Source: a virus
Taxonomy: Duplodnaviria; Caudoviricetes
DNA: 50,906 nucleotides
Virus record (IMG/VR): IMGVR_UViG_3300005253_000221
Coordinates: 1-50,906 of that record
Strand: one strand, 5' to 3'
Position numbers and translations under genes: made by a program. The number at the start of each line of letters is the position of its first letter. The stretch's first letter is position 1. The notes beneath the pieces were generated by a model that had not been told where the DNA came from, did not search any database, and worked only from the letters and a program-made list of their open reading frames with translations. Shown here one piece after another: positions 25,167 to 41,570 of this stretch.

Positions 25167-25582
25167 TTGTTGTATCCTTTTAGGACGGTGGTGAAGTGTT
25201 GGTGAACCCAGGTGTAGAGGTCTTCCTTATTATAAAATACTGGTTTGTCCGCCGCTCGGAACCACTTTTCCTCCTCATCGGCCCCTCTCGACTCTGTTTG
25301 CTCATAGTTCAGTTCGGTGCAAATCGCAGGTATTCGCAGGAGGGCGTCATACAAGGAGAACATGGCCTCGTCCGCATTCATCCAATCCCGGTACCCCCGA
25401 GGGAACATCATGTGTTGGAAGTGGGTCCATAAAGGCGTCACCGGCCACACAACCCCATCGGTCAACAACTCATCCCACACCTTACAGGACGCTCTCACAT
25501 TCAAAGCCTGGTCTCCCCTCGTATAAGGGCTTGCAATGTACACTACTGGCTTATCTGGTCTCTTGCTTTTCGGATCTTGCAT
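25163..25582 (-). CDS. Nucleoside 2-deoxyribosyltransferase-like protein (DUF1937/DUF4406-like)
   Basis: VYIASPYT...ESRGADEE...KPVF. Confidence 0.75.
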   Translation of the reverse strand: MQDPKSKRPDKPVVYIASPYTRGDQALNVRASCKVWDELLTDGVVWPVTPLWTHFQHMMFPRGYRDWMNADEAMFSLYDALLRIPAICTELNYEQTESRGADEEEKWFRAADKPVFYNKEDLYTWVHQHFTTVLKGYNK

Positions 25583-26030
25583 CGTCTAGTATCCTTTGTG
25601 TAAATGGTTCAACTCTCGCAGAGCACCTATCTAGTATTTCTCCGGCTAATACGCTTAGACCGGGCTTGTTAAGATTGCCAGGTAACTGTGGAGGTCTATC
25701 ATCTACCCAGTTTTCCATGTGTTGACCGTCGCGCAGCACGGCTAAAGTTGCCATGGCTTTGATAATATGAGGTAGGCCGCTGTCCGGGTCGATGTCCTCG
25801 CCTTCCCACCAACTCATTATGTGACCGATTGCTGCGTCGTAATACACCGACGCGAGCACACCGGCGACACGGTAGTTATGTCGCCCATATTTTGCAGATC
25901 CCTCCAACATTGCAAGCCCAATTTCAAGCATGACACGAGACGGCACTGTACTCATTGGTGCCTTGCGCGCCCCCACCGCGTCCTTGGGGTTTACCTCTTT
26001 CGTGGTCACATTTTTCCTTTCTATTACCAT
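25551..26030 (-). CDS. dATP/dGTP diphosphohydrolase-domain protein (DUF5664-like)
   Basis: NPKDAVG..K, GSAKYGRHN, WWEGEDIDPDSGLPH, DDRP. Confidence 0.85.
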   Translation of the reverse strand: MVIERKNVTTKEVNPKDAVGARKAPMSTVPSRVMLEIGLAMLEGSAKYGRHNYRVAGVLASVYYDAAIGHIMSWWEGEDIDPDSGLPHIIKAMATLAVLRDGQHMENWVDDRPPQLPGNLNKPGLSVLAGEILDRCSARVEPFTQRILDDARSEKQETR

Positions 26031-29970: not shown

Positions 29971-30134
29971 TTCTTTTTTCTCCTGCAACCGCATTGCATG
30001 CGTGGTTTATCGCATTCTTTACACCATCCACAGTATGTGTGCCTACTACCCTCCTTGATGCAGTTCACCCGCCCCATGTCATCATACTTGGGCCACTCTC
30101 CCATCGCCTTCCTGAACTTGAACCGGGTGATCAT
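29967..30134 (-). CDS. Small Cys-rich phage protein
   Basis: 55 aa MITRFKFRKAMGEWPKYDDMGRVNC...HTYCGWCKECDKPRMQCGC; ATGA-coupled at both ends; not in the ORF track. Confidence 0.65.
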   Translation of the reverse strand: MITRFKFRKAMGEWPKYDDMGRVNCIKEGSRHTYCGWCKECDKPRMQCGCRRKKK

Positions 30135-30343
30135 TGCACACGCTGCCCGCTGCCCGGCATTAGAAGGTCATTCAGATAGTCAGGCTCCAGTCCGAAGTGC
30201 TCCTCGCAGAAGGTGTCTGTGTCCAGGATGCCGCCCGTTATAAGCAGCAGGTTTAGCTCATACTTGGCCTCAGAGAACTTCTCTCTGGCATCCTCTTCAG
30301 ACATGTTGTCACGCTCCACCAAGATCTTCACTATCCGTTCCAT
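30131..30343 (-). CDS. Hypothetical protein
   Basis: 70 aa, ILVERDNMSEEDA...FGLEPDYL (common phage family); GAGG RBS. Confidence 0.7.
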   Translation of the reverse strand: MERIVKILVERDNMSEEDAREKFSEAKYELNLLLITGGILDTDTFCEEHFGLEPDYLNDLLMPGSGQRVQ

Positions 30344-30581
30344 CGCTCACCTCCAGAGTAATTGGGTCAATGGTCTGTTCTCCAGATTCGCCACTCTCAT
30401 TATCTTGCACCCCGTTAATCGTGCCTTGGAGAGCCCGGTAAGACCCGTAGGTGCACATGGATGTATCGTTCAGAAAGCCGCCATCGTCGATTAGTAAATC
30501 AAGGGCCTTCATGAGCTGTAATGCGTTGTATTTCATTACTTGTCCTTTCACGAATTCCGCAGATATGATGTACTTGTTCAT
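30309..30581 (-). CDS. Hypothetical protein
   Basis: 90 aa, translationally coupled. Confidence 0.5.
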   Translation of the reverse strand: MNKYIISAEFVKGQVMKYNALQLMKALDLLIDDGGFLNDTSMCTYGSYRALQGTINGVQDNESGESGEQTIDPITLEVSDGTDSEDLGGA

Positions 30582-30859
30582 TCAATGTCTTCCAGGCTTC
30601 CGATTTTTCGCAGGTCGTTCAGAACCTTAGTTCCATACACCCTCAGAGTGAATGGTGTATCGTCGCTTGTCGTCCCCAAGACCACCCAACAGTGCCCGTC
30701 GGAGCATTTCGCTATGACATACCGCGTTCCCGACCTGTTCTCGAACACCGTAGAAAGCGGGTAATTGTCGCAGTTTGGGCATTCATATTCGTTGTGCTCA
30801 CTCACTACTTGTAGCCTCATTAGTTGTCTCCACATACAGTATTCATGCTTAGGGTACAA
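30578..30859 (-). CDS. Hypothetical Zn-binding protein
   Basis: CPNC...CSDGH; start uncertain. Confidence 0.5.
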   Translation of the reverse strand: MYPKHEYCMWRQLMRLQVVSEHNEYECPNCDNYPLSTVFENRSGTRYVIAKCSDGHCWVVLGTTSDDTPFTLRVYGTKVLNDLRKIGSLEDIE

Positions 30860-31034
30860 TCTTCAACAGTTGTCCGCAACTGTTTATCTGGTCATCTGCC
30901 CAGTCTATCTTGTTTTGAAGCTCGTCCCGATCCCGCACAAGTTCCAATCGGTACTGTTGCAGGTCGCCCTTGTATGACGCGATGTTATGAATCGTTTCAT
31001 TACTCAAAAACGGTATCTTTTCATGAACCATCAT
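30849..31034 (-). CDS. Hypothetical coiled-coil protein
   Basis: 61 aa with GGAG RBS. Confidence 0.5.
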   Translation of the reverse strand: MMVHEKIPFLSNETIHNIASYKGDLQQYRLELVRDRDELQNKIDWADDQINSCGQLLKIVP

Positions 31035-31046
31035 GATTAGCTCCGA

Positions 31047-31493
31047 TCAATATTTTTCCAACTCGTCTATGCGTGCAGATAATGTCTCGGTTGCAAGGCG
31101 GTATGCCCGGAGCGACCGTTTATGTCGTTCCACCTCCTGTTTATGGCTGTAATTCTCCGCATCCAGATTACGCTCAACCATGGCTATCTGGTTCTCCAGT
31201 TCCTCTATGCGTTCCTGGGCTTTATGCTTTCCCGTCTTATCGCAAGACTCCCAACAGTCGCGTTGCGGGCCGATATCCACGCCAGTTTCGGGTGCTCCAT
31301 CAGGCCACGGGTCACTGTCAAGCTCTGGCTTGCGTTCACCAGTTACCGCGTCGGTCACCTTTCCAGTTTCAGGATCAATACAAACCCCGTTTGGATCAGC
31401 GTGTTCTGGATCAAACGATGTATCCTTCACGCCGTCCGGGGCTAGTTCACCCGTGTCCCGCGAGGGATCGAAATTCTCGTCATAGTCACGCAC
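31047..31493 (-). CDS. Hypothetical protein (acidic N-terminus, C-terminal coiled coil)
   Basis: 148 aa with AAAGGAG RBS. Confidence 0.6.
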   Translation of the reverse strand: MRDYDENFDPSRDTGELAPDGVKDTSFDPEHADPNGVCIDPETGKVTDAVTGERKPELDSDPWPDGAPETGVDIGPQRDCWESCDKTGKHKAQERIEELENQIAMVERNLDAENYSHKQEVERHKRSLRAYRLATETLSARIDELEKY

Positions 31494-31837
31494 ATTAATC
31501 TCCTTTCAGTTTTAGTACATGTTTCCACTTCACGTTTATGCGTGCAGAGTACGCTATCGTTTCATCGGTCACATAGGCCGTTCTGGCAATCTTGCACATG
31601 ATTTTTGCCATGTTGTTGATGGGCATCCTTTGCCCATCGTCACTAATATAGTAGGTAGCCTCAAACATTAGTCCATGCCTCCGCCGTGTTTGCTATACCA
31701 TTTGTGCGATTCATTGTTGTGCCGTTGATGCAACGTCTCCGAGCGTTTAACGCCGCTCTTATCACGCCAGTGGGTAACTATCATTCGTCGGTCACTTTTT
31801 CCACTGATGACCTTTACAGTTAGTTTTTCCATATTCA

Positions 31838-32155
31838 TCACAGTACCCTGCGAATACTGGACTCCGACCCTTCGGATAGCTCGACCGTGTGCCCGTTGAC
31901 GCGGAGTTCGATTTTGGGCTCACGTGTCCAGTCTGGGTTTCCGATTTCCGAGATATCTTCTGGCAATTGCCGCGTCCTTTTCCACACCTTTACAATGTCT
32001 AATTCTACAATATCGATATTAGTCAAGTCGTCGTGGTACTTAACGAGTTTGGAAAACGAGGGCCAAACGCCCCACAACTCATCGTTTATGACAACACGCC
32101 TATCACCGTACCTATACTCAATTATGAATCCCGTTTCCAGATCATTCTTTCTCAT
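31838..32155 (-). CDS. Hypothetical protein
   Basis: 105 aa, MRKNDLETG..IEYR.G...DIVKVW (common phage family). Confidence 0.65.
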   Translation of the reverse strand: MRKNDLETGFIIEYRYGDRRVVINDELWGVWPSFSKLVKYHDDLTNIDIVELDIVKVWKRTRQLPEDISEIGNPDWTREPKIELRVNGHTVELSEGSESSIRRVL

Positions 32156-32184
32156 TATTGGGTCCCCTAGAAGAAATTAGTTTA

Positions 32185-32283
32185 TGTGACATAAACCGGG
32201 CGACAGAATGCCAGTAGCTCTACAGCCTTTTCAGGGGCTTACGGGCTATGGTCCTTACGACTTGCCGCCCGGTTTATGTCACA
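32185..32283 (-). ncRNA. Putative structured RNA B (long closing stem plus two hairpins)
   Basis: 18-bp perfect inverted repeat TGTGACATAAACCGGGCG/CGCCCGGTTTATGTCACA, extendable by G-U on the - strand. It encloses GTC-GTAAG-GAC and TAGC..AGCC/GGCT..GCTA stems and fills the intergenic gap. Confidence 0.55.
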
Positions 32284-32458
32284 CACCGATTACAGTATCA
32301 GAATCGGCGAGTCGTTTCTCTGCTTTTTCCCAGATTTCACGCGGCAAAATGTACATTCGTTCCTGTGCGTCAAGTACAGCAGTAGCCTTGCACATTTTGG
32401 CGTTAACGAGATAGTGACACGCGATAGCCACGCGTCCCTCGGGCCTACTGTCATTCAT
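32279..32458 (-). CDS. Hypothetical protein
   Basis: 59 aa MNDSRPEGRV... with GGAG RBS. The longer 173-aa ORF call is probably spurious because it runs through the structured RNA. Confidence 0.5.
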   Translation of the reverse strand: MNDSRPEGRVAIACHYLVNAKMCKATAVLDAQERMYILPREIWEKAEKRLADSDTVIGV

Positions 32459-32479
32459 GGCAACATCTCCGATAATAAG

Positions 32480-32915
32480 GGTTGTAAAGTAGTTCCGCCC
32501 CGGCTCTAAGAGAGTATCGATTCCGACACCGTGCAGCGTCCCACATGTGGGACGCCGGTCACCTTGCGGCGACACACAGCTTAGAGCCTTTCTGTCACTG
32601 GTCTCATCGGTGTTTGAGTTACGAGCACGTATCACCATGCCGCGGTATCGGAATCGATACTCTCTGGGTGACATCGCAGAGAGACGACCCCTGGGTGAAT
32701 TGTTGGCCATCCGGCCTGCCAGTGCCTCACGTTGGACTTCTTGCTGCTGCGGGATCGTGTCTCTACGGTGTCTGTTCCCACCTAGGCTCTCGCATACCAT
32801 GTAACCGATATCAGTATCGGCTGTTGACAGGCTTTGCCGTTGCCACCATCCTAGTGGCGTGTCAGAATTCCTAGGATACTTATTCAGTTTTTTTTTTTAA
32901 ACGTGCTTCCAAACC
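32480..32915 (-). ncRNA. Putative large structured RNA or leader C
   Basis: Starts below a consensus sigma70 promoter. A 23-bp stem (32643..32665 with 32509..32531) encloses five hairpins including GTCGCC-GCAA-GGTGAC and GCGTCCCAC-AT-GTGGGACGC, with more hairpins upstream. Confidence 0.6.
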
Positions 32916-32925
32916 TTACACTTAT

Positions 32926-32954
32926 AGTATACAAGCAAAACTATCGTTTGTCAA
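32926..32954 (-). promoter_or_regulatory. Sigma70-type promoter
   Basis: TTGACA-17 nt-TATACT on the - strand. Confidence 0.8.
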
Positions 32955-33292
32955 ACGAAATCTCGGCTTTTTATGAAAGAATCTACAGATTGTTGCCAGA
33001 CGCTCTTTCTCCCGGGCTTGGGCTTCTTGACAGGTTTGGGCTTAAGTTTTAAGCCCTCCCAAACATCATTGAGCTGACCGATCCTTGCGGCTGTGGCTCG
33101 TATCATGCTTTTGTTGTTCCCAAGCTCGCCACGTGTGAGCCTATTGTGGCACGTTATGGCCGCCCCTCTCTTGGCCGCTAGTGTATCAAAACTATCTAGG
33201 CCATACGCGACATCATTGGCCATCAGAGCGTCAAGTCTCTTCTTCAGAGCATTGGGAATCTTTATTTTATACTTGCGTTGTGTTGTTCGAAT
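32951..33292 (-). CDS. Basic hypothetical protein, probable non-AUG (ATT) start
   Basis: Frame is open for 23 codons upstream of ATG 33223, to an ATT 7 nt after AAAGGAG. Confidence 0.5.
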   Translation of the reverse strand: MRTTQRKYKIKIPNALKKRLDALMANDVAYGLDSFDTLAAKRGAAITCHNRLTRGELGNNKSMIRATAARIGQLNDVWEGLKLKPKPVKKPKPGRKSVWQQSVDSFIKSRDFV

Positions 33293-33330
33293 TATCAGTC
33301 TCCTTTCGAGTAGATGAATTGACGAAAAAC

Positions 33331-33409
33331 TGGAAAGACCACAAGATTTTCGGTGTCTACCCTCTTTGTTCAGGGTAAACTAGGTCTACGTCACCTTGTG
33401 GTCTTTTCA
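33331..33409 (-). ncRNA. Putative structured RNA A (long closing stem plus two hairpins)
   Basis: AAAGACCACAAG/CTTGTGGTCTTT 12-bp stem enclosing GGT-GACGTAG-ACC and GTTTACCCT-GAACAAAG-AGGGTAGAC; intergenic. Confidence 0.55.
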
Positions 33410-33417
33410 TCGTTCCG

Positions 33418-33501
33418 TTAGCACATTGCTGCGTACGCCCATATTGCTAGTCCGATGATCGGTCCCATCTCTACGGCCATATCTGCTAGTAGATGTTTCA
33501 T
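33418..33501 (-). CDS. 27-aa hydrophobic peptide (paralog of 36022..36105)
   Basis: MKHLLADMAVEMGPIIGLAIWAYAAMC. Confidence 0.5.
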   Translation of the reverse strand: MKHLLADMAVEMGPIIGLAIWAYAAMC

Positions 33502-33507
33502 GGTGCA

Positions 33508-34347
33508 TTAAACTCCGCATAGCCCTTCACATTCATTCCCGAAAAGATCAGGATGAGAATTTTGTAGGTTCGCTTTAAAATCGATGGTGTCCAATGGAAC
33601 GCGGGAACTATGCAGATACGGGACACCCCGCATATTGTCGGTCTGTGCCTTAGTGTTCTGCAAATCTTTCTCGAATTGCACGGCCTTAGCGAATTCAACT
33701 GGTTCATCAGTCTTCAACCTCAGCCATTCCGTATCGTCGTGATACGGGCAATACACGCAGGCCGACCGCGGCGGCTTCGGGTAACCGTGATTCTTCATCC
33801 ATCGGAAGCAATCCTGCCGGGATATACCCATATCTATCAATGGCCATTCATGCTCACACCACGGCTCTCGGCTAGGCTTCATTCGGTGACTTTCATCTGT
33901 GGATATTCCGATCCAGCCTATCACACCCACCGTTTTTTGCCCCCGTTTTATGCCCCCAATTCGGCGTTGTGCTTTTATGAGTTCTCGTACTTTATAGTCA
34001 TATGTGCAAGCCCGTTGCATATGGCCCTTTTTACCGTTGGGTTCAAGCGTGAAACAGGGTATAAGGGATTTTGTCCATTGACCCTCTCGATCAGGCCGGT
34101 CACGCAACAGCAATGCCATATCGGTCAAACTCCCTTTGGTTACCTGAATAACCGGGTAGGGATACTTACTGCGTTGGATTTCACCAACAAGCCAGCCGAG
34201 CCATTTATACACACTCTGTGGCTCGGCTTGCGTGTCCGCGAATATAGCCGCATCTAAACGATGTTCGGTCTCGCCAGTGGCAGCCATTAGTGCCAATGTA
34301 GAACTTTGTACGCCAGCACCTAATGATAAGATTCGTGTGTGTTCCAC
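33508..34347 (-). CDS. PAPS-reductase-like (PP-loop) protein
   Basis: LSLGAGVQS, IFADT, CTYDYK, WIGISTDE, PPRSACVYCPY, ECEGLC. Confidence 0.85.
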   Translation of the reverse strand: MEHTRILSLGAGVQSSTLALMAATGETEHRLDAAIFADTQAEPQSVYKWLGWLVGEIQRSKYPYPVIQVTKGSLTDMALLLRDRPDREGQWTKSLIPCFTLEPNGKKGHMQRACTYDYKVRELIKAQRRIGGIKRGQKTVGVIGWIGISTDESHRMKPSREPWCEHEWPLIDMGISRQDCFRWMKNHGYPKPPRSACVYCPYHDDTEWLRLKTDEPVEFAKAVQFEKDLQNTKAQTDNMRGVPYLHSSRVPLDTIDFKANLQNSHPDLFGNECEGLCGV

Positions 34348-34375
34348 GGTGTCTCCTGTCTAAAACATACGCGAA

Positions 34376-34795
34376 TTAGTCGGTTACATGTACTGCCTCT
34401 ATGTATCCACGTAAGTCGCCTTTACTTATTCGTTTGGTCGCCGTAAATCCTTCACATTCCATCGGGTAATCTTCCGCTTGAATAATCTCGGCAGGGATGC
34501 AAATTTCTGGATCAAAATGACCACAGGACAGGAGACAATCGGCCAGACAATGTTTTCTCGCGTCTGAGTCCATGGACAATAGGTCGGATGTTGTGAGGCC
34601 ACAGCAGTCCAATGCCGATTTCCAACGACCCTTGTACAATAGGATGACGACGTGTTCAATCATGACCATCCCATCGGCTCCACACCCCGAGTCCAGGTCA
34701 GTAACCTGGACACATTCACAATATTCATCCTCCCAACTGGACAGGTCAATGTATGATCCGCCGTACTCAATATTACAATCGCCGTTGTACAACAT
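34376..34795 (-). CDS. Hypothetical acidic early protein
   Basis: 139 aa with GGGGAG RBS. Confidence 0.65.
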   Translation of the reverse strand: MLYNGDCNIEYGGSYIDLSSWEDEYCECVQVTDLDSGCGADGMVMIEHVVILLYKGRWKSALDCCGLTTSDLLSMDSDARKHCLADCLLSCGHFDPEICIPAEIIQAEDYPMECEGFTATKRISKGDLRGYIEAVHVTD

Positions 34796-34884
34796 GGTAG
34801 TCTCCCCCTTTCGACAATGCCTTCCGTGGCGTGCCCTAGTGACTCGTGGTCCTAGTTCGGCGAATCCATTCGGCTTCTGGCTTA

Positions 34885-34913
34885 AGTATACGCAACAGAT
34901 TGTGACAGTGCAA
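34885..34913 (-). promoter_or_regulatory. Sigma70-type promoter
   Basis: TTGCAC-17 nt-TATACT on the - strand. Confidence 0.65.
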
Positions 34914-34925
34914 ATGTTGTTGCTG

Positions 34926-35102
34926 CTAAACCGATATGTTCTTGTACTGGTCCGTTCCCGTCATCCAACTATACCACAATCCCGTGGGTGTTTCCATAAT
35001 CACAGCCCCTTTGCGTGTGGGGTCAAGCATGATGCGCTTGTCCCTGTCCGTGTCCAGTACGGTTCGTTCTTGCGTCTCATAGTTGTAGAGTGGTCCTCGC
35101 AT
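34926..35102 (-). CDS. Hypothetical early protein
   Basis: 58 aa MRGPLYNYETQERTVLD... with AGGAGG RBS; not in the ORF track. Confidence 0.65.
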   Translation of the reverse strand: MRGPLYNYETQERTVLDTDRDKRIMLDPTRKGAVIMETPTGLWYSWMTGTDQYKNISV

Positions 35103-35181
35103 GACTAATCCTCCTGCTCAAAACATACACGACAATGCCTTCCGTGGCGTGCCATTGTTTTTGCTACTCGTCGATCCATAA

Positions 35182-35367
35182 TTAACAGGCTGGATCTCCC
35201 GTCCAGCCGCAAGCTACAGCGTGTTGATGCGACGCTGTAGAGGACGATCGCGCAATTTTATCAAGGCACCTCCTACACAAGTACTTCTCGCCGGCCTTTA
35301 ACGTCTCTTGGCTGTGTGTGGCGAGGGGAAGTTGCCCCCCGCATTTACTGCATTTTATAATACGCAT
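35182..35367 (-). CDS. Small zinc-finger protein
   Basis: CSKC...CRRC with AGGAG RBS. Confidence 0.65.
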   Translation of the reverse strand: MRIIKCSKCGGQLPLATHSQETLKAGEKYLCRRCLDKIARSSSTASHQHAVACGWTGDPAC

Positions 35368-35479
35368 AAAGTCTCCTATGATTTTAGATGGTCAACACCG
35401 CCTGAGCCAGCGTCAATTGATGTATTCCCTTTCGTTTATTTTAAGCATACCCAATGAATACACGAGATGCAAACACCTA

Positions 35480-35850
35480 AATGTCACGACTAGTAATGTA
35501 AATAAAGCCCTTAAGGGGTCAAAAACGCTACATTACTTGAATTATTATGTTGTAAGTGTTTATGCAGTAAGTGTTTAGCATTTCAAGTCTAGTGATAAGT
35601 ACTTGTTTCTCTATTAGACTATAGGGGAGAAAGTATATAGGTAACGTATATGTAATAGGTTTACGTATATGTGTATTCCCTATAGAGAACAATGTAAAAA
35701 CCAATACTCGTCACTCGCCTTAGTCAGGTAGCCTGATTATAAATGCTTAGTGGAGCTTAGTTTAAGTGTTCACCTAGCTTAAGTAACGTAGCGTTTCTGG
35801 CCCAATAATGGCGAATACTCCTACCTTGAAGTCTAAGCGTGTGACATGTT
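35480..35850. other. AT-rich imperfect palindrome, candidate replication origin
   Basis: Nested inverted pairs centred near 35655 plus short direct repeats; no credible ORF. Confidence 0.5.
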
Positions 35851-36021
35851 AGCCGAGGGAAACATTGTTGTCCGGGCCCCAACATTGTTAGGCTAGCACC
35901 TAAGCAGAGGGGTAATTGACCTTCAGTCACCGATTCCACATATGCCGCACAAGGCCCTATAATCTAATTGGCCACCCAATACCCGATTTCTGAAGATCGT
36001 GGCTCCTACCCTATGTTACGG

Positions 36022-36105
36022 TCAGCACAGGGCAACGAACGCAGCGATGGCAAGTACAATGATGCCGGGCCAGTCCGATGCCCTGTACTTGAAGTAGATG
36101 CTCAT
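36022..36105 (-). CDS. 27-aa hydrophobic peptide (paralog of 33418..33501)
   Basis: MSIYFKYRASDWPGIIVLAIAAFVALC; starts immediately after the upstream stop. Confidence 0.5.
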   Translation of the reverse strand: MSIYFKYRASDWPGIIVLAIAAFVALC

Positions 36106-36106
36106 C

Positions 36107-36265
36107 CTAATATCCCAGCCATCGGTAGAGTTCCACCCAACTCATGTCGGGTGTCTCGTCGTATCTGTCGATCAGTTGGTGTTCTGCCAAGATCGCCGCG
36201 TTCCGCTGAGCAGTGCGGGGTGTTCCGCACATGTCCAGCACCATTGCTCGTTCTAATGCGTCCAT
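36107..36265 (-). CDS. Small WLGY-terminal protein, paralog 2
   Basis: 52 aa MDALERAMVLD...AILAEH...MSWVELYRWLGY. Confidence 0.7.
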   Translation of the reverse strand: MDALERAMVLDMCGTPRTAQRNAAILAEHQLIDRYDETPDMSWVELYRWLGY

Positions 36266-36267
36266 GA

Positions 36268-36429
36268 TCAGTATCCCAGCCATTTGTAGAACTCTACCCA
36301 AGTCATGCCCTTTGTGGCGTCCCAGTCCTCAACGTCCGTATGACAATGTTCGCTCAATATGGCTACTCGGCTGGATTCACTTAATGGCCCTAGTTTGTCC
36401 ATTTCAGCACAGTGGTCTAATGAGTCCAT
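36268..36429 (-). CDS. Small WLGY-terminal protein, paralog 1
   Basis: 53 aa MDSLDHCAEMD...AILSEH...MTWVEFYKWLGY; not in the ORF track. Confidence 0.7.
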   Translation of the reverse strand: MDSLDHCAEMDKLGPLSESSRVAILSEHCHTDVEDWDATKGMTWVEFYKWLGY

Positions 36430-36738
36430 GGTGTAACCCCTTTCAGATTCTTAAGAGTACAATTGGCTACCCTAAGTCTGCGTAACAGTGGGTGAGTATG
36501 CAAACAAAATGTGCAAATACGCCTAAAAATCGCTGCAAATGGGGCTATTATCGGGCCTATGTCGTTATCGGTCCTGCCCTGTACGCGAGGGATGACGACG
36601 TCCGATAACGCTCCTGTCCGATAATATCGCGACCCCCGGGGTACCACCCTCGGCATTATGGGACCCGCGGCGGGGTGAGTCCGTAACTGGACACCGCTCG
36701 TCTTGATGAAATTTTTATTTTTCCGGCCCAAGGGTGAG

Positions 36739-36768
36739 AAAATAGCCATATATTGATCGGTAGTATAG
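36739..36768 (+). promoter_or_regulatory. Putative phage-specific promoter, copy 1
   Basis: AAATAGCC-N11-GGTAGTATAGA after an A/T tract, at the start of the rightward genes. Confidence 0.55.
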
Positions 36769-36782
36769 AAAGGCGGTGTGAA

Positions 36783-37001
36783 ATGTTTGTGCACTCGAAT
36801 GAGGTGTTGTATCCGAGACCGAAGCATAGGTGGGGGGCGTTTAACGCCCGGCTGGACGCGGGGTTCAGGAGAAGGAAGCCCTCTGATTTCTGCACGATGT
36901 TCGGAAAGCCATTCTATGCCATGGACCGCCAGGAATTAGAGAAGGTGGCGTATATATTGGCCGACTCGATAATCGAGCGCGATAGTCACACAATATGGTA
37001 G
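36783..37001 (+). CDS. Hypothetical protein
   Basis: 72 aa, first rightward gene. Confidence 0.5.
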   Translation: MFVHSNEVLYPRPKHRWGAFNARLDAGFRRRKPSDFCTMFGKPFYAMDRQELEKVAYILADSIIERDSHTIW

Positions 37002-40671: not shown

Positions 40672-40886
40672 TGGTGATATACAAGGGAAGACCGCTACAC
40701 GAGTTCTCCAGGTGGGAGCTATTGTCGTTTGCCGAGAATATGGCGTCTATGCATATGCTAAGGCAGGACATAGTAGACCGGCTGGAGGCAGATGGCATAG
40801 ACCTAGTGGCGGACGACGTTGATGAAAAAGCCTTTAAACATTTTTCAAAGAGCATTAAGTGCTTACGCTCTTTGAAAAGTGAATAG
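40671..40886 (+). CDS. Hypothetical protein
   Basis: 71 aa; 3' end lies in the tandem duplication. Confidence 0.55.
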   Translation: MVIYKGRPLHEFSRWELLSFAENMASMHMLRQDIVDRLEADGIDLVADDVDEKAFKHFSKSIKCLRSLKSE

Positions 40887-41063
40887 CCTGGGAGCCCATT
40901 GGCGACCCAGGTGCGCGGGAGTAGCTCAGTGGTAGAGCATCACGTAAGCCTTTAAACATTTTTCAAAGAGCATTAAGTGCTTACGCTCTTTGAAAAGTGA
41001 ATAGCCTGGGAGCCCGTTGGCGACCCAGGTGCGCGGGAGTAGCTCAGTGGTAGAGTATCACGT
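40828..41063 (+). repeat. 118-bp tandem duplication (40828..40945 and 40946..41063), 2 mismatches
   Basis: Each unit has a TTTTCAAAGAGC/GCTCTTTGAAAA hairpin, a CCTGGG/CCCAGG hairpin and the 5' half of tRNA-Gly. Confidence 0.95.
40915..40945 (+). pseudogene. 5' half of tRNA-Gly
   Basis: GCGGGAGTAGCTCAGTGGTAGAGCATCACGT, truncated in the anticodon loop. Confidence 0.85.
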
Positions 41064-41104
41064 TGCCAACGTGATTGTCGCCGGTTCGAGTCCGGCCTCC
41101 CGCT
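41033..41104 (+). tRNA. tRNA-Gly(GCC)
   Basis: GCGGGAG/CTCCCGC acceptor, TCACG-TTGCCAA-CGTGA anticodon arm, TTCGAGT T-loop, U73; CCA not encoded. Confidence 0.95.
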
Positions 41105-41108
41105 TTAT

Positions 41109-41231
41109 GCGGGTTCATCTTGTGGTGTATTCGGTAGCACACGCGCCTTCGCGGGACCTGGGCTCGAAACCCAGGCAAGGTTAAGAGCAAGCATGGTCGT
41201 GCAGCCCACGGTGAGTTTGTGCAGAACCCGT
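41109..41231 (+). ncRNA. tRNA-like RNA 1 (shrunken anticodon arm, extra 3' hairpin, outer closing stem)
   Basis: D arm GTGT-ATTCGGTA-GCAC, mini arm CGCG-CCTT-CGCG, T arm CTGGG-CTCGAAA-CCCAG, acceptor-like ATCTTG/CAAGGT, all enclosed by GCGGGTTC/GAACCCGT. Confidence 0.65.
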
Positions 41232-41235
41232 TTTT

Positions 41236-41315
41236 GGTGAAGTAGCTCAGTCCGGCAGAGCACAGGGGAACGTCGAGAGGCGCCCTGGTCGCTGGTTCGA
41301 CTCCAGCCTTCACCC
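41236..41315 (+). ncRNA. tRNA-like RNA 2 (anticodon loop replaced by a GNRA-capped helix)
   Basis: Perfect GGTGAAG/CTTCACC acceptor, D arm, and GCTGG-TTCGACT-CCAGC T arm; anticodon arm reads CAGGG-GAA-CGTC-GAGA-GGCG-CCCTG. Confidence 0.8.
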
Positions 41316-41317
41316 TT

Positions 41318-41389
41318 GGACCGGTCGTCTAACGGTTAGGATGCGCGCCTCTCAAGCGCGCGATGGGAGTTCAATTCTCCCCCGGTTCA
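41318..41389 (+). tRNA. tRNA-Glu(CTC)
   Basis: GGACCGG/CCGGTTC acceptor, CGCGC-CTCTCAA-GCGCG anticodon arm, GGGAG-TTCAATT-CTCCC T arm. Confidence 0.92.
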
Positions 41390-41391
41390 TA

Positions 41392-41417
41392 CGTGGGTTC
41401 GATTCCCACCGTCGTCT
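41392..41417 (+). pseudogene. 3' tRNA remnant (T arm plus acceptor strand)
   Basis: GTGGG-TTCGATT-CCCAC-CGTCGTC with no 5' half. Confidence 0.7.
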
Positions 41418-41421
41418 TTAC

Positions 41422-41493
41422 AGACCCATCTTCTAACGGTTAGGATACTAGGTTTTCACCCTGGTGACGGGAGTTCAATTCTCCCTGGGTCTA
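41422..41493 (+). tRNA. tRNA-Glu(TTC)
   Basis: AGACCCA/TGGGTCT acceptor, CTAGG-TTTTCAC-CCTGG anticodon arm. Confidence 0.92.
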
Positions 41494-41495
41494 TT

Positions 41496-41570
41496 GTGGC
41501 CATAGTGTAATTGGCAGCACGGCAGGTTGTGATCCTGTCGGTGTGGGTTCAAGTCCCACTGGTCACCCCA
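41496..41570 (+). tRNA. tRNA-His(GTG)
   Basis: GTGGCCA/TGGTCAC acceptor, GCAGG-TTGTGAT-CCTGT anticodon arm, C73, encoded CCA; T at position -1. Confidence 0.93.

Follow-up and report, generated by a model that had tools for sequence, protein, structure and literature searches.

What is made from the few hundred nucleotides that separate two small genes, g90 and g59, on the - strand of an uncultured phage, whether a protein, a regulatory RNA or the leader of a message, is the question raised by positions 32459 to 32919 of the virus record IMGVR_UViG_3300005253_000221, which was analysed as a whole (the window: 50,906 bp, 100% complete according to CheckV, with linear ends). This stretch and its immediate surroundings combine a promoter match, long helices with a thermodynamic excess over shuffled sequence, wobble pairs biased to the transcribed strand and a lack of coding signal. 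Most probably it does not code for protein and folds as RNA of the - strand, and the reading we tentatively prefer is that of an untranslated early leader in which RNase III-type processing stems would bracket g59. The finding is a candidate taken from one sequence and not a demonstrated new RNA class.

A first-pass annotation of this DNA had placed a consensus sigma70 promoter before the stretch, and TTGACA-17-TATACT is indeed present on the - strand at 32926..32954 (32954..32926 in the direction of reading), matching the consensus at 11 of 12 positions. Among 15 promoter-like sites in 30000-37000 it ranks first, and it is the sole 11/12 site, there being 10 sites with at least 10/12 matches genome-wide on both strands; it shares bases with the stop codon of the gene upstream, and ahead of it no credible gene occurs over a long distance. 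Judged from the spacing, transcription would start near 32919-32921, and the putative untranslated folded leader would extend over ~460 nt (32459..32919, - strand) up to the ATG of g59, a 59-aa open reading frame (ORF) at 32279..32458 on the same strand. A GGAG motif (32470-32467) lies 8 nt before this ATG, the same arrangement as in many genes of this phage, and the Markov coding score of g59 is +0.086. The 5' end of the leader is AU-rich and weakly folded, with a run of 11 A at 32888..32898, and beyond its first 60 nt the leader is not AT-rich. Two small hairpins follow on the - strand, one of 7 bp (GCCACUA/UGGUGGC, 32842..32858, mean pair probability 0.93) and one of 8 bp (AGCCGAUA/UAUCGGUU, 32803..32822, mean pair probability 0.94), the latter just 5' of the ATG of a 173-aa ORF considered below. 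No intrinsic terminator was detected on the - strand within the leader, and a leader peptide was discarded, as no ORF with a ribosome site precedes g59, except for internal GTGs behind a weak AAGG.

Folding of 32457-32920 on the - strand gave a minimum free energy (MFE) of -181.3 kcal/mol, compared with a mean of -143.7 (standard deviation, sd, 6.05) for shuffled sequences, which corresponds to a z of -6.21 with none of 100 shuffles as stable, and the centroid (-175.4) is near the MFE. The opposite (+) strand gave -166.5 and z -3.35, and two control windows, selected as the most structured ones elsewhere in the genome, gave z values of -3.54 and -3.14 with centroids lying 31-34 kcal/mol above the MFE. 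When the full 776 nt of 32150-32925, which reach from the promoter as far as the following gene, were folded, values of -297.1 kcal/mol (z -9.2) and -273.7 kcal/mol (z -6.6) were obtained for the - and + strands, respectively.

Two solid modules account for the part of the earlier description, a ~430-nt highly structured RNA, that stands. The first, S2, is a module of 157 nt (32509..32665, - strand) in which a 23-bp helix closes five hairpins; its fold (-85.9 kcal/mol, z -8.25) is identical for MFE and centroid, and the + strand gives -74.5 and z -5.84. The underlying inverted repeat (32509-32531 / 32643-32665) has arms of 23 nt that are 96% complementary and 111 nt apart, the single mismatch being U.G on the - strand and A.C on the + strand. 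All that the first-pass annotation had reported for this helix was recovered, namely its length, its one G-U and the five enclosed hairpins, which include a 6-bp stem capped by GCAA (GUCGCC-GCAA-GGUGAC) and a perfect 20-nt palindrome at 32536-32555. The second, domain B (32666..32779, - strand, 114 nt), is rod-like, with stacked helices of 3+4+8+8 bp and a branched tip; it reaches -44.0 kcal/mol (z -3.37, none of 200 shuffles as stable, z -1.74 on the + strand) with pair probabilities of 0.92-1.00. The 5' end, on the contrary, does not share in the high structure proposed. Its 146 nt (32780-32925) show a z of -1.68, with 10 of 200 shuffles as stable, and the three-way junction (TGACA/TGTCA) once drawn in this segment is hosted by a sequence that does not fold above chance, and the MFE folds do not contain TGACA/TGTCA in the form drawn.

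The long helix of S2 is not isolated. A second 23-bp helix, with two G.U pairs and closing 57 nt, forms module S3 (32183..32285, - strand; -52.8 kcal/mol, z -7.47), its arms being 32263-32285 and 32183-32205 (32185-32205 / 32263-32283 in the inverted-repeat scan). The 5' arm of S3 begins in the last codons of g59 and covers its stop codon; thus, with S2 before it and S3 behind it, g59 is bracketed by two 23-bp stems. A third and interrupted stem, S1, of ~22 bp with a 14-bp core (33318..33422, - strand; -38.1 kcal/mol, z -5.22, against z -3.62 on the + strand), fills the gap between g90 and a PAPS-reductase-like gene (33508-34347), one gene upstream of the leader. A U-rich run comes after S1, which may act in processing or as a weak terminator. 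S1, S2 and S3 occupy the gaps PAPS-reductase|g90, g90|g59 and g59|g105 of one block of same-strand genes, for which co-transcription is inferred. Among the 23 pairs of a genome-wide inverted-repeat scan, S2 and S3 are the two most complementary ones with an enclosed spacer (at least 95%), and by our own arithmetic only ~2e-4 repeats of at least 21 nt, with at most 1 mismatch and within 300 nt, would be expected by chance in this genome. In addition, the three non-Watson-Crick positions of the S2 and S3 helices are all G.U on the - strand and A.C on the + strand, which speaks for selection acting on the RNA.

Under the reading we prefer, host sigma70 RNA polymerase would make an early transcript from ~32919 into g59, and the two-turn double-stranded stems would serve as processing and stability signals for host RNase III. 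If S2 were cut, the leader would come apart from the g59 message and a compact RNA with five hairpins, ~110-150 nt long, would be released, and a cut in S3, ~5 nt past the stop codon, would set or destabilise the 3' end of g59. The S3 cut would leave g59 without a 3' hairpin and could lower its stability in a manner similar to lambda sib. The idealised E. coli RNase III substrate has 22 bp, or two helical turns, and the T7 polycistronic early precursor carries five RNase III signals, both according to PMC3867540. With regard to this stem length (~22 bp), S2 has 23 bp with one G.U and S3 has 23 bp with two, and as to intercistronic position, each of S1, S2 and S3 lies in a gap between same-strand genes. 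The earlier proposal that the long helix might be an RNase III site thus gains support from the second 23-bp stem and from the third long stem nearby.

Several observations weigh against this reading. Some 0.7 promoter matches of 11/12 are expected by chance in 2 x 51 kb (own arithmetic), so that the weight of the promoter depends on its position and orientation. When 439 windows were folded on both strands (878 folds) and compared after GC adjustment, the region came 4th and 6th at about -2.5 sd, the top three windows being the tRNA block, and it is thus an outlier of only ~2.5 sd relative to the remaining windows. S3 is as stable on the + strand (z -7.29) as on the - strand (-7.47, as given above). 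Since no homologue of the leader was found in any of the collections searched, no helix is backed by covariation. That the promoter is used, that RNase III cuts and that g59 is affected in any way are deductions from the sequence, and both recognition by a host sigma70 and the specificity of RNase III are assumed. Finally, an ORF runs through much of the leader with a coding score that overlaps those of some accepted small ORFs (g93, -0.055; g57a, -0.005), and its frame has 1 stop in 154 codons, versus 3-11 in the other five frames.

This ORF of 173 aa (32279-32800, - strand) consists of 114 upstream codons joined in frame to g59, and if it encoded a real arginine-rich protein, the RNA structure would be incidental. 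Apart from the openness of the frame and its continuity with g59, a simpler codon-usage score (+0.051) exceeds that of wrong-frame windows (95th percentile, -0.10) and approaches that of some small early ORFs, although the value is ambiguous, being similar to those of several small neighbours. On the contrary, the third-order periodic Markov score of the 114 upstream codons is -0.06, the 1st percentile (-0.061) of leave-one-out windows from real genes (mean 0.155, sd 0.088), while 88 spurious open frames averaged -0.161 (sd 0.133). GC content by codon position is flat (0.59/0.52/0.56), unlike the neighbouring ORFs, which dip at the second position to 0.24-0.44, and frames of the + strand are also open here for 109 and 85 codons, indicating that the region is stop-poor in general. 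No Shine-Dalgarno motif precedes the ATG, which sits at the foot of the 8-bp hairpin. No Pfam or PHROG match was found, and the only homologue among 142 candidates from 5.8 billion proteins was the ORF itself. Coding statistics alone are not decisive, yet the 114 upstream codons look non-coding and the ORF spurious, with some residual doubt, and we regard a real protein as highly improbable.

The first-pass annotation recognised no RNA family in the stretch, and the searches are in line with it: Rfam 15 at gathering score over the whole window returned 5 matches, all of them tRNA at 41033-41567 and none in the leader, and a permissive scan of 32150-33300 returned 7 matches with E <= 10, all far below gathering score, the best being mir-4776 (22.5 bits versus a gathering score of 97, E 0.052). 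As for particular identities, neither tRNA nor tmRNA was detected in the leader, and no Rfam match for intron, riboswitch, ribozyme, GOLLD or ROOL was obtained, as far as the models reach.

Relatives of the leader were equally lacking. Distant-mode blastn of 32200-33300 against 50,697 phage records gave no homologue, and six-pattern scans with the translated leader produced 15 pattern matches in IMG/VR, 368 in JGI metagenomes and 288 in GTDB genomes, with 0 confirmed. For g59, none of 9 pattern matches in IMG/VR was confirmed, no relative appeared in the 5.8-billion-protein set, Pfam and PHROG held no family and the protein atlas no usable match. For g90, alone and as an alignment, scans of IMG/VR, metagenomes and genomes gave 71, 398, 596 and 134 pattern matches, again with 0 confirmed; its tblastn search in phages was empty, and the protein atlas offered sub-threshold leads only. 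The 80 loci with a PAPS-reductase-like gene (at most 62% identity) contained none of the 13 neighbouring proteins, and comparison of the RNA with them yielded 4 blastn matches of 16-30 nt with E >= 0.23 and nothing by nhmmer; 16 RecG-like loci were at most 36% identical. A single-sequence covariance model of S2, run on the window and these 96 loci (874 kb), recovered itself and its mirror, the other 6 matches having E >= 2.5. In all, IMG/VR, JGI metagenomes, GTDB genomes, INPHARED and the 96 loci provided no homologue of the leader, and from one sequence without a homologue a novel family of non-coding RNA (ncRNA) cannot be shown.

Modules that are conserved, like their neighbours, nowhere among the collections searched also suit another explanation, which we consider unlikely, namely that S2 (157 bp) and S3 (103 bp) are miniature palindromic mobile or selfish DNA, Correia (CREE)- or ERIC-like, lodged in intergenic gaps, the RNA structure being a by-product, even if such elements may serve as RNase III substrates once transcribed. 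CREE are 153-157 bp long, and their inverted repeats form hairpins in mRNA that are bound or cleaved by RNase III (PMC2649163). S2, with its 157 bp and 23-bp terminal inverted repeats, falls in that size class, and both S2 and S3 show terminal inverted repeats bounding a short non-coding element, as is required of a miniature inverted-repeat transposable element (MITE); they are, moreover, two unrelated modules alike in build, less than 500 bp apart and both in non-coding gaps. The likeness to CREE and bacterial MITEs further extends to inverted repeats of ~23-26 bp and to co-transcription between promoter and gene, and in Neisseria the hairpin of the element is an RNase III substrate (PMC2649163). 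Against this explanation, (i) no second copy exists in the phage, where only self and arm-to-arm matches were found, (ii) 18-nt arm patterns matched 40 stretches for S2 (17 viral, 23 genome) and 20 for S3 (4 viral, 16 genome), about the chance number and in unrelated taxa, and none of these 60 stretches contains the second arm (in a search that did not extend to the host genome), (iii) no target-site duplication is seen, the flanks being CACCC|...|UAGAG for S2 and AUCGG|...|AACUA for S3, (iv) there is no sequence similarity to CREE, and the carrier is a phage, and (v) all three mismatches of the helices are wobbles when the transcribed strand is read, suggesting selection at the RNA level.

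The palindromic character of the arms could equally be relevant in the DNA itself, and the region would then be a transcription-activated replication origin or single-strand initiation site, or an array of palindromic operators, for which GTATCG-N4-CGATAC (twice) and CCGATA-N4-TATCGG are candidates. Each 23-bp arm is near-palindromic, a third related palindrome lies at 32805-32820, the perfect 20-nt palindrome of S2 adds to them, S3 is as stable on one strand as on the other, and an AT-rich divergent zone at the minimum of the cumulative GC skew is ~3 kb away. Nevertheless, no iterons or direct repeats were detected beyond 10-15-nt chance matches, the region is not AT-rich past its first 60 nt, and the flanks of the arms are inverted too, as a helix needs and repeated operators do not. 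Operators 100-400 bp downstream of a promoter, where these would be placed, are unusual, and the wobble pattern together with a 15 kcal/mol advantage of the - strand fits a single-stranded element better. We therefore give little credence to a DNA-level element.

A direct effect of the leader on g59 by base pairing was also contemplated. In a cis translational switch, 32838-32795 would pair with the g59 start region (32462-32442), and a local TGACA/TGTCA fold would free the start. When the fold is extended to 32440, the MFE structure does contain the long-range helices CAUGGUA/UGCCAUG, CUGUCA/UGACAG and GGC/GCC, which place 16 bp over the AUG and codons 2-5 of g59 with pair probabilities of 0.57-0.68, and the UGACA upstream is an alternative partner for CUGUCA, in agreement with the earlier drawing of the junction. 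These helices are however short (3-7 bp), the pairing is lost in the 464-nt and 776-nt folds, the ensemble diversity is high (82.9), and the Shine-Dalgarno motif is mostly unpaired in all folds; no family match suggests a ligand or factor either. A switch of this kind appears improbable.

The complementarity noted at first between a loop of S2 and sites on either side of it raises a different type of regulation. The loop GGCUCUAAG (32580..32588, - strand; GGCTCTAAG, 32588..32580 in the direction of reading) was located in the weak third hairpin of S2 by folding and complement search, and it is perfectly complementary over 9 nt to CUUAGAGCC (32502..32510, - strand; CTTAGAGCC, 32510..32502), as had been proposed; 7 nt of the same loop also match AGAGCCU upstream (32784..32790, - strand; AGAGCCT, 32790..32784). 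A complement of at least 9 nt to the 17-nt loop segment has P = 0.006 in 5000 shuffles, and one of at least 7 nt P = 0.093, that is, it occurs in 9.3% of them. Correction of the former for ~12 loops leaves ~0.07 by our own arithmetic, a marginal value, and with up to 1 mismatch the target motif has 8 matches genome-wide versus 8.19 expected, without enrichment. The first 2 nt of the downstream target are, furthermore, the last 2 nt of the 3' arm of the S2 helix, and a 23-bp A-form helix is ~60 Angstrom long. Since the target overlaps the arm without any linker, it cannot pair in cis with a loop at the far end while the helix stands, and being unreachable in the intact fold, it would call for alternative or intermolecular pairing rather than a pseudoknot.

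These features bear on the parallel drawn with the P1 C4 and P4 CI immunity RNAs, according to which a small RNA processed from the leader would act as an antisense regulator in trans or in cis, its loop pairing with up- and downstream sites of the same transcript and stopping transcription or translation. In P4, an untranslated primary transcript is the precursor of CI RNA, which base-pairs with seqA and seqC, located up- and downstream of CI (PMC4825925), and the locus studied here resembles this precedent in its untranslated leader behind a strong promoter, in a loop with complements on both sides and in a stem able to release the five-hairpin module. It differs in that C4 is absent from the matches at E <= 10 in 32150-33300, where no other Rfam family reached its gathering score either, the complement is marginal, the target is buried in the foot of the helix, the loop is partly paired within its weak hairpin, and no integrase or repressor, and thus no lysogeny gene, was recognised among the 30 ORFs scanned, a subset of all ORFs. 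C4-type RNAs are, moreover, released from the leader by RNase P and control a lysogeny or replication gene, while the ORF downstream here, g59, has no known family. The parallel is therefore not sustained, and we hold such a regulator to be very unlikely. A broader version, quite unlikely in our estimation, is that the promoter drives a dedicated ncRNA gene from which RNase III would excise a stable RNA with five hairpins (~110-150 nt) and perhaps another small RNA from S3. The five-hairpin RNA would act in trans early in infection, either by titrating a host RNA-binding or defence factor as a decoy or by antisense pairing through GGCUCUAAG, and would represent a new regulatory class.

The stretch is unlikely to be a product of assembly, as it was recovered in pieces from a second sample at 100% identity. 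Three DNA runs, all from one marine-sediment study, contain the window sequence, and no RNA run is listed. Contigs of these runs show no difference from the window within 32457-32925 (some bins lack cover in runs X2 and X3), and those observed, substitutions at 32191 and 32234 and a T inserted behind 32227, are all in or beside S3. In run X1, one contig agrees with the window only as far as 33503, where the PAPS-reductase-like gene ends, and has a loose end of 255 nt, which hints at a variant genome arrangement within the same sample.

Regarding the gene setting, which accords with the preferred reading, the leader is embedded in a group of small early ORFs on the - strand, none with an assigned function, flanked by the PAPS-reductase-like gene on one side and replication genes on the other. 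The gene directly upstream, g90 (~113 aa; 32951..33292, - strand), has a stop codon that overlaps the -35 hexamer. Its mechanical annotation from ATG gives 90 aa, while its distant relatives, three proteins with 44-61% identity (Logan, NCBI), carry 25-30 extra N-terminal residues that are encoded in frame here behind AGGAGA, so the start must be a non-canonical ATT (33292) or ATA (33295). According to PHROG, genes of the - strand encode a DNA primase, a Sak4-like annealing protein, an exonuclease, a family-A DNA polymerase, a T7-lysozyme-like amidase and a RecG-like helicase, and those of the + strand an RNA ligase, terminase, portal and tail fibre. The family-A polymerase reaches at best ~26% identity to that of any cultured phage, making the lineage an orphan. 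The amidase gene (25551-26030, - strand; phrog_2252, E 1e-54) is a homologue of the T7 lysozyme/amidase family, which inhibits phage RNA polymerase; the 30 ORFs scanned included no recognisable polymerase of that kind.

Other structured or unusual features of the genome lie at a distance from the leader. In 35100-36000, GC content falls to 0.37-0.45, transcription diverges, the cumulative GC skew is at its minimum, and an imperfect inverted repeat of 32 nt (35507-35538 / 35781-35812) occurs together with two promoter-like sites (10/12) of the + strand; this zone is likely the early control region and possibly also an origin. The strongest folding of the whole genome belongs to a tandem 118-nt duplication, 98% identical, at 40828-41063 (+ strand), the unit of which comprises a 15-bp hairpin and the 5' half of tRNA-Gly, copy 1 being a truncated tRNA and copy 2 running into an intact tRNA-Gly(GCC). 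A fifth tRNA of 80 nt (41236-41315, + strand) is detected by Rfam with 45 bits and is absent from the ARAGORN output, with an oversized loop or an insert in its anticodon arm. A perfect 16-bp hairpin with a 5-nt loop (1697-1733) separates the late genes 418-1689 and 1754-2821 and may terminate transcription or stabilise mRNA.

When the leader is set beside known systems, the excision of rRNA offers one likeness, since RNase III there cleaves the long helix into which the flanks of a folded RNA pair, and in S2 a long perfect helix of distant flanks likewise closes a compact multi-hairpin RNA that a double cut could release. The enclosed RNA is here of only 111 nt, matches no known family and lies in an mRNA leader instead of a stable-RNA operon. 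A dedicated ncRNA made in this way would be the first of a new class of regulatory RNAs in phages, one excised from an mRNA leader in the manner of rRNA. GOLLD and ROOL are also large, highly structured non-coding RNAs of phages with tRNA genes (PMC12286853, PMC5737381); relative to them, the leader RNA is smaller, is devoid of Rfam match or conservation, and lies at least 3.5 kb from the tRNA block and not beside it.

The closest parallel to the preferred reading, that of an early leader with processing stems, is provided by the early RNase III signals of T7 and by lambda sib, which share with S1, S2 and S3 the location in intercistronic gaps of an operon that would, here too, be early and read by host polymerase. 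As in T7, the stems span about two helical turns (here 23, 23 and ~22 bp), with one on each side of a small cistron. T7 sites are, by contrast, single hairpins with an internal loop, whereas perfect stems here enclose 111 nt (five hairpins) and 57 nt, which also counts against the analogy, and they have no sequence similarity to the present stems. If this reading is right, a divergent uncultured phage of marine sediment would share with T7 the trick of using stems to cut an early transcript into defined pieces, RNase III control of early genes would reach a distant phage lineage, and perfect 23-bp stems would also release small folded RNAs, so that promoter, excisable RNA and bracketed ORF would form a compact natural cassette.

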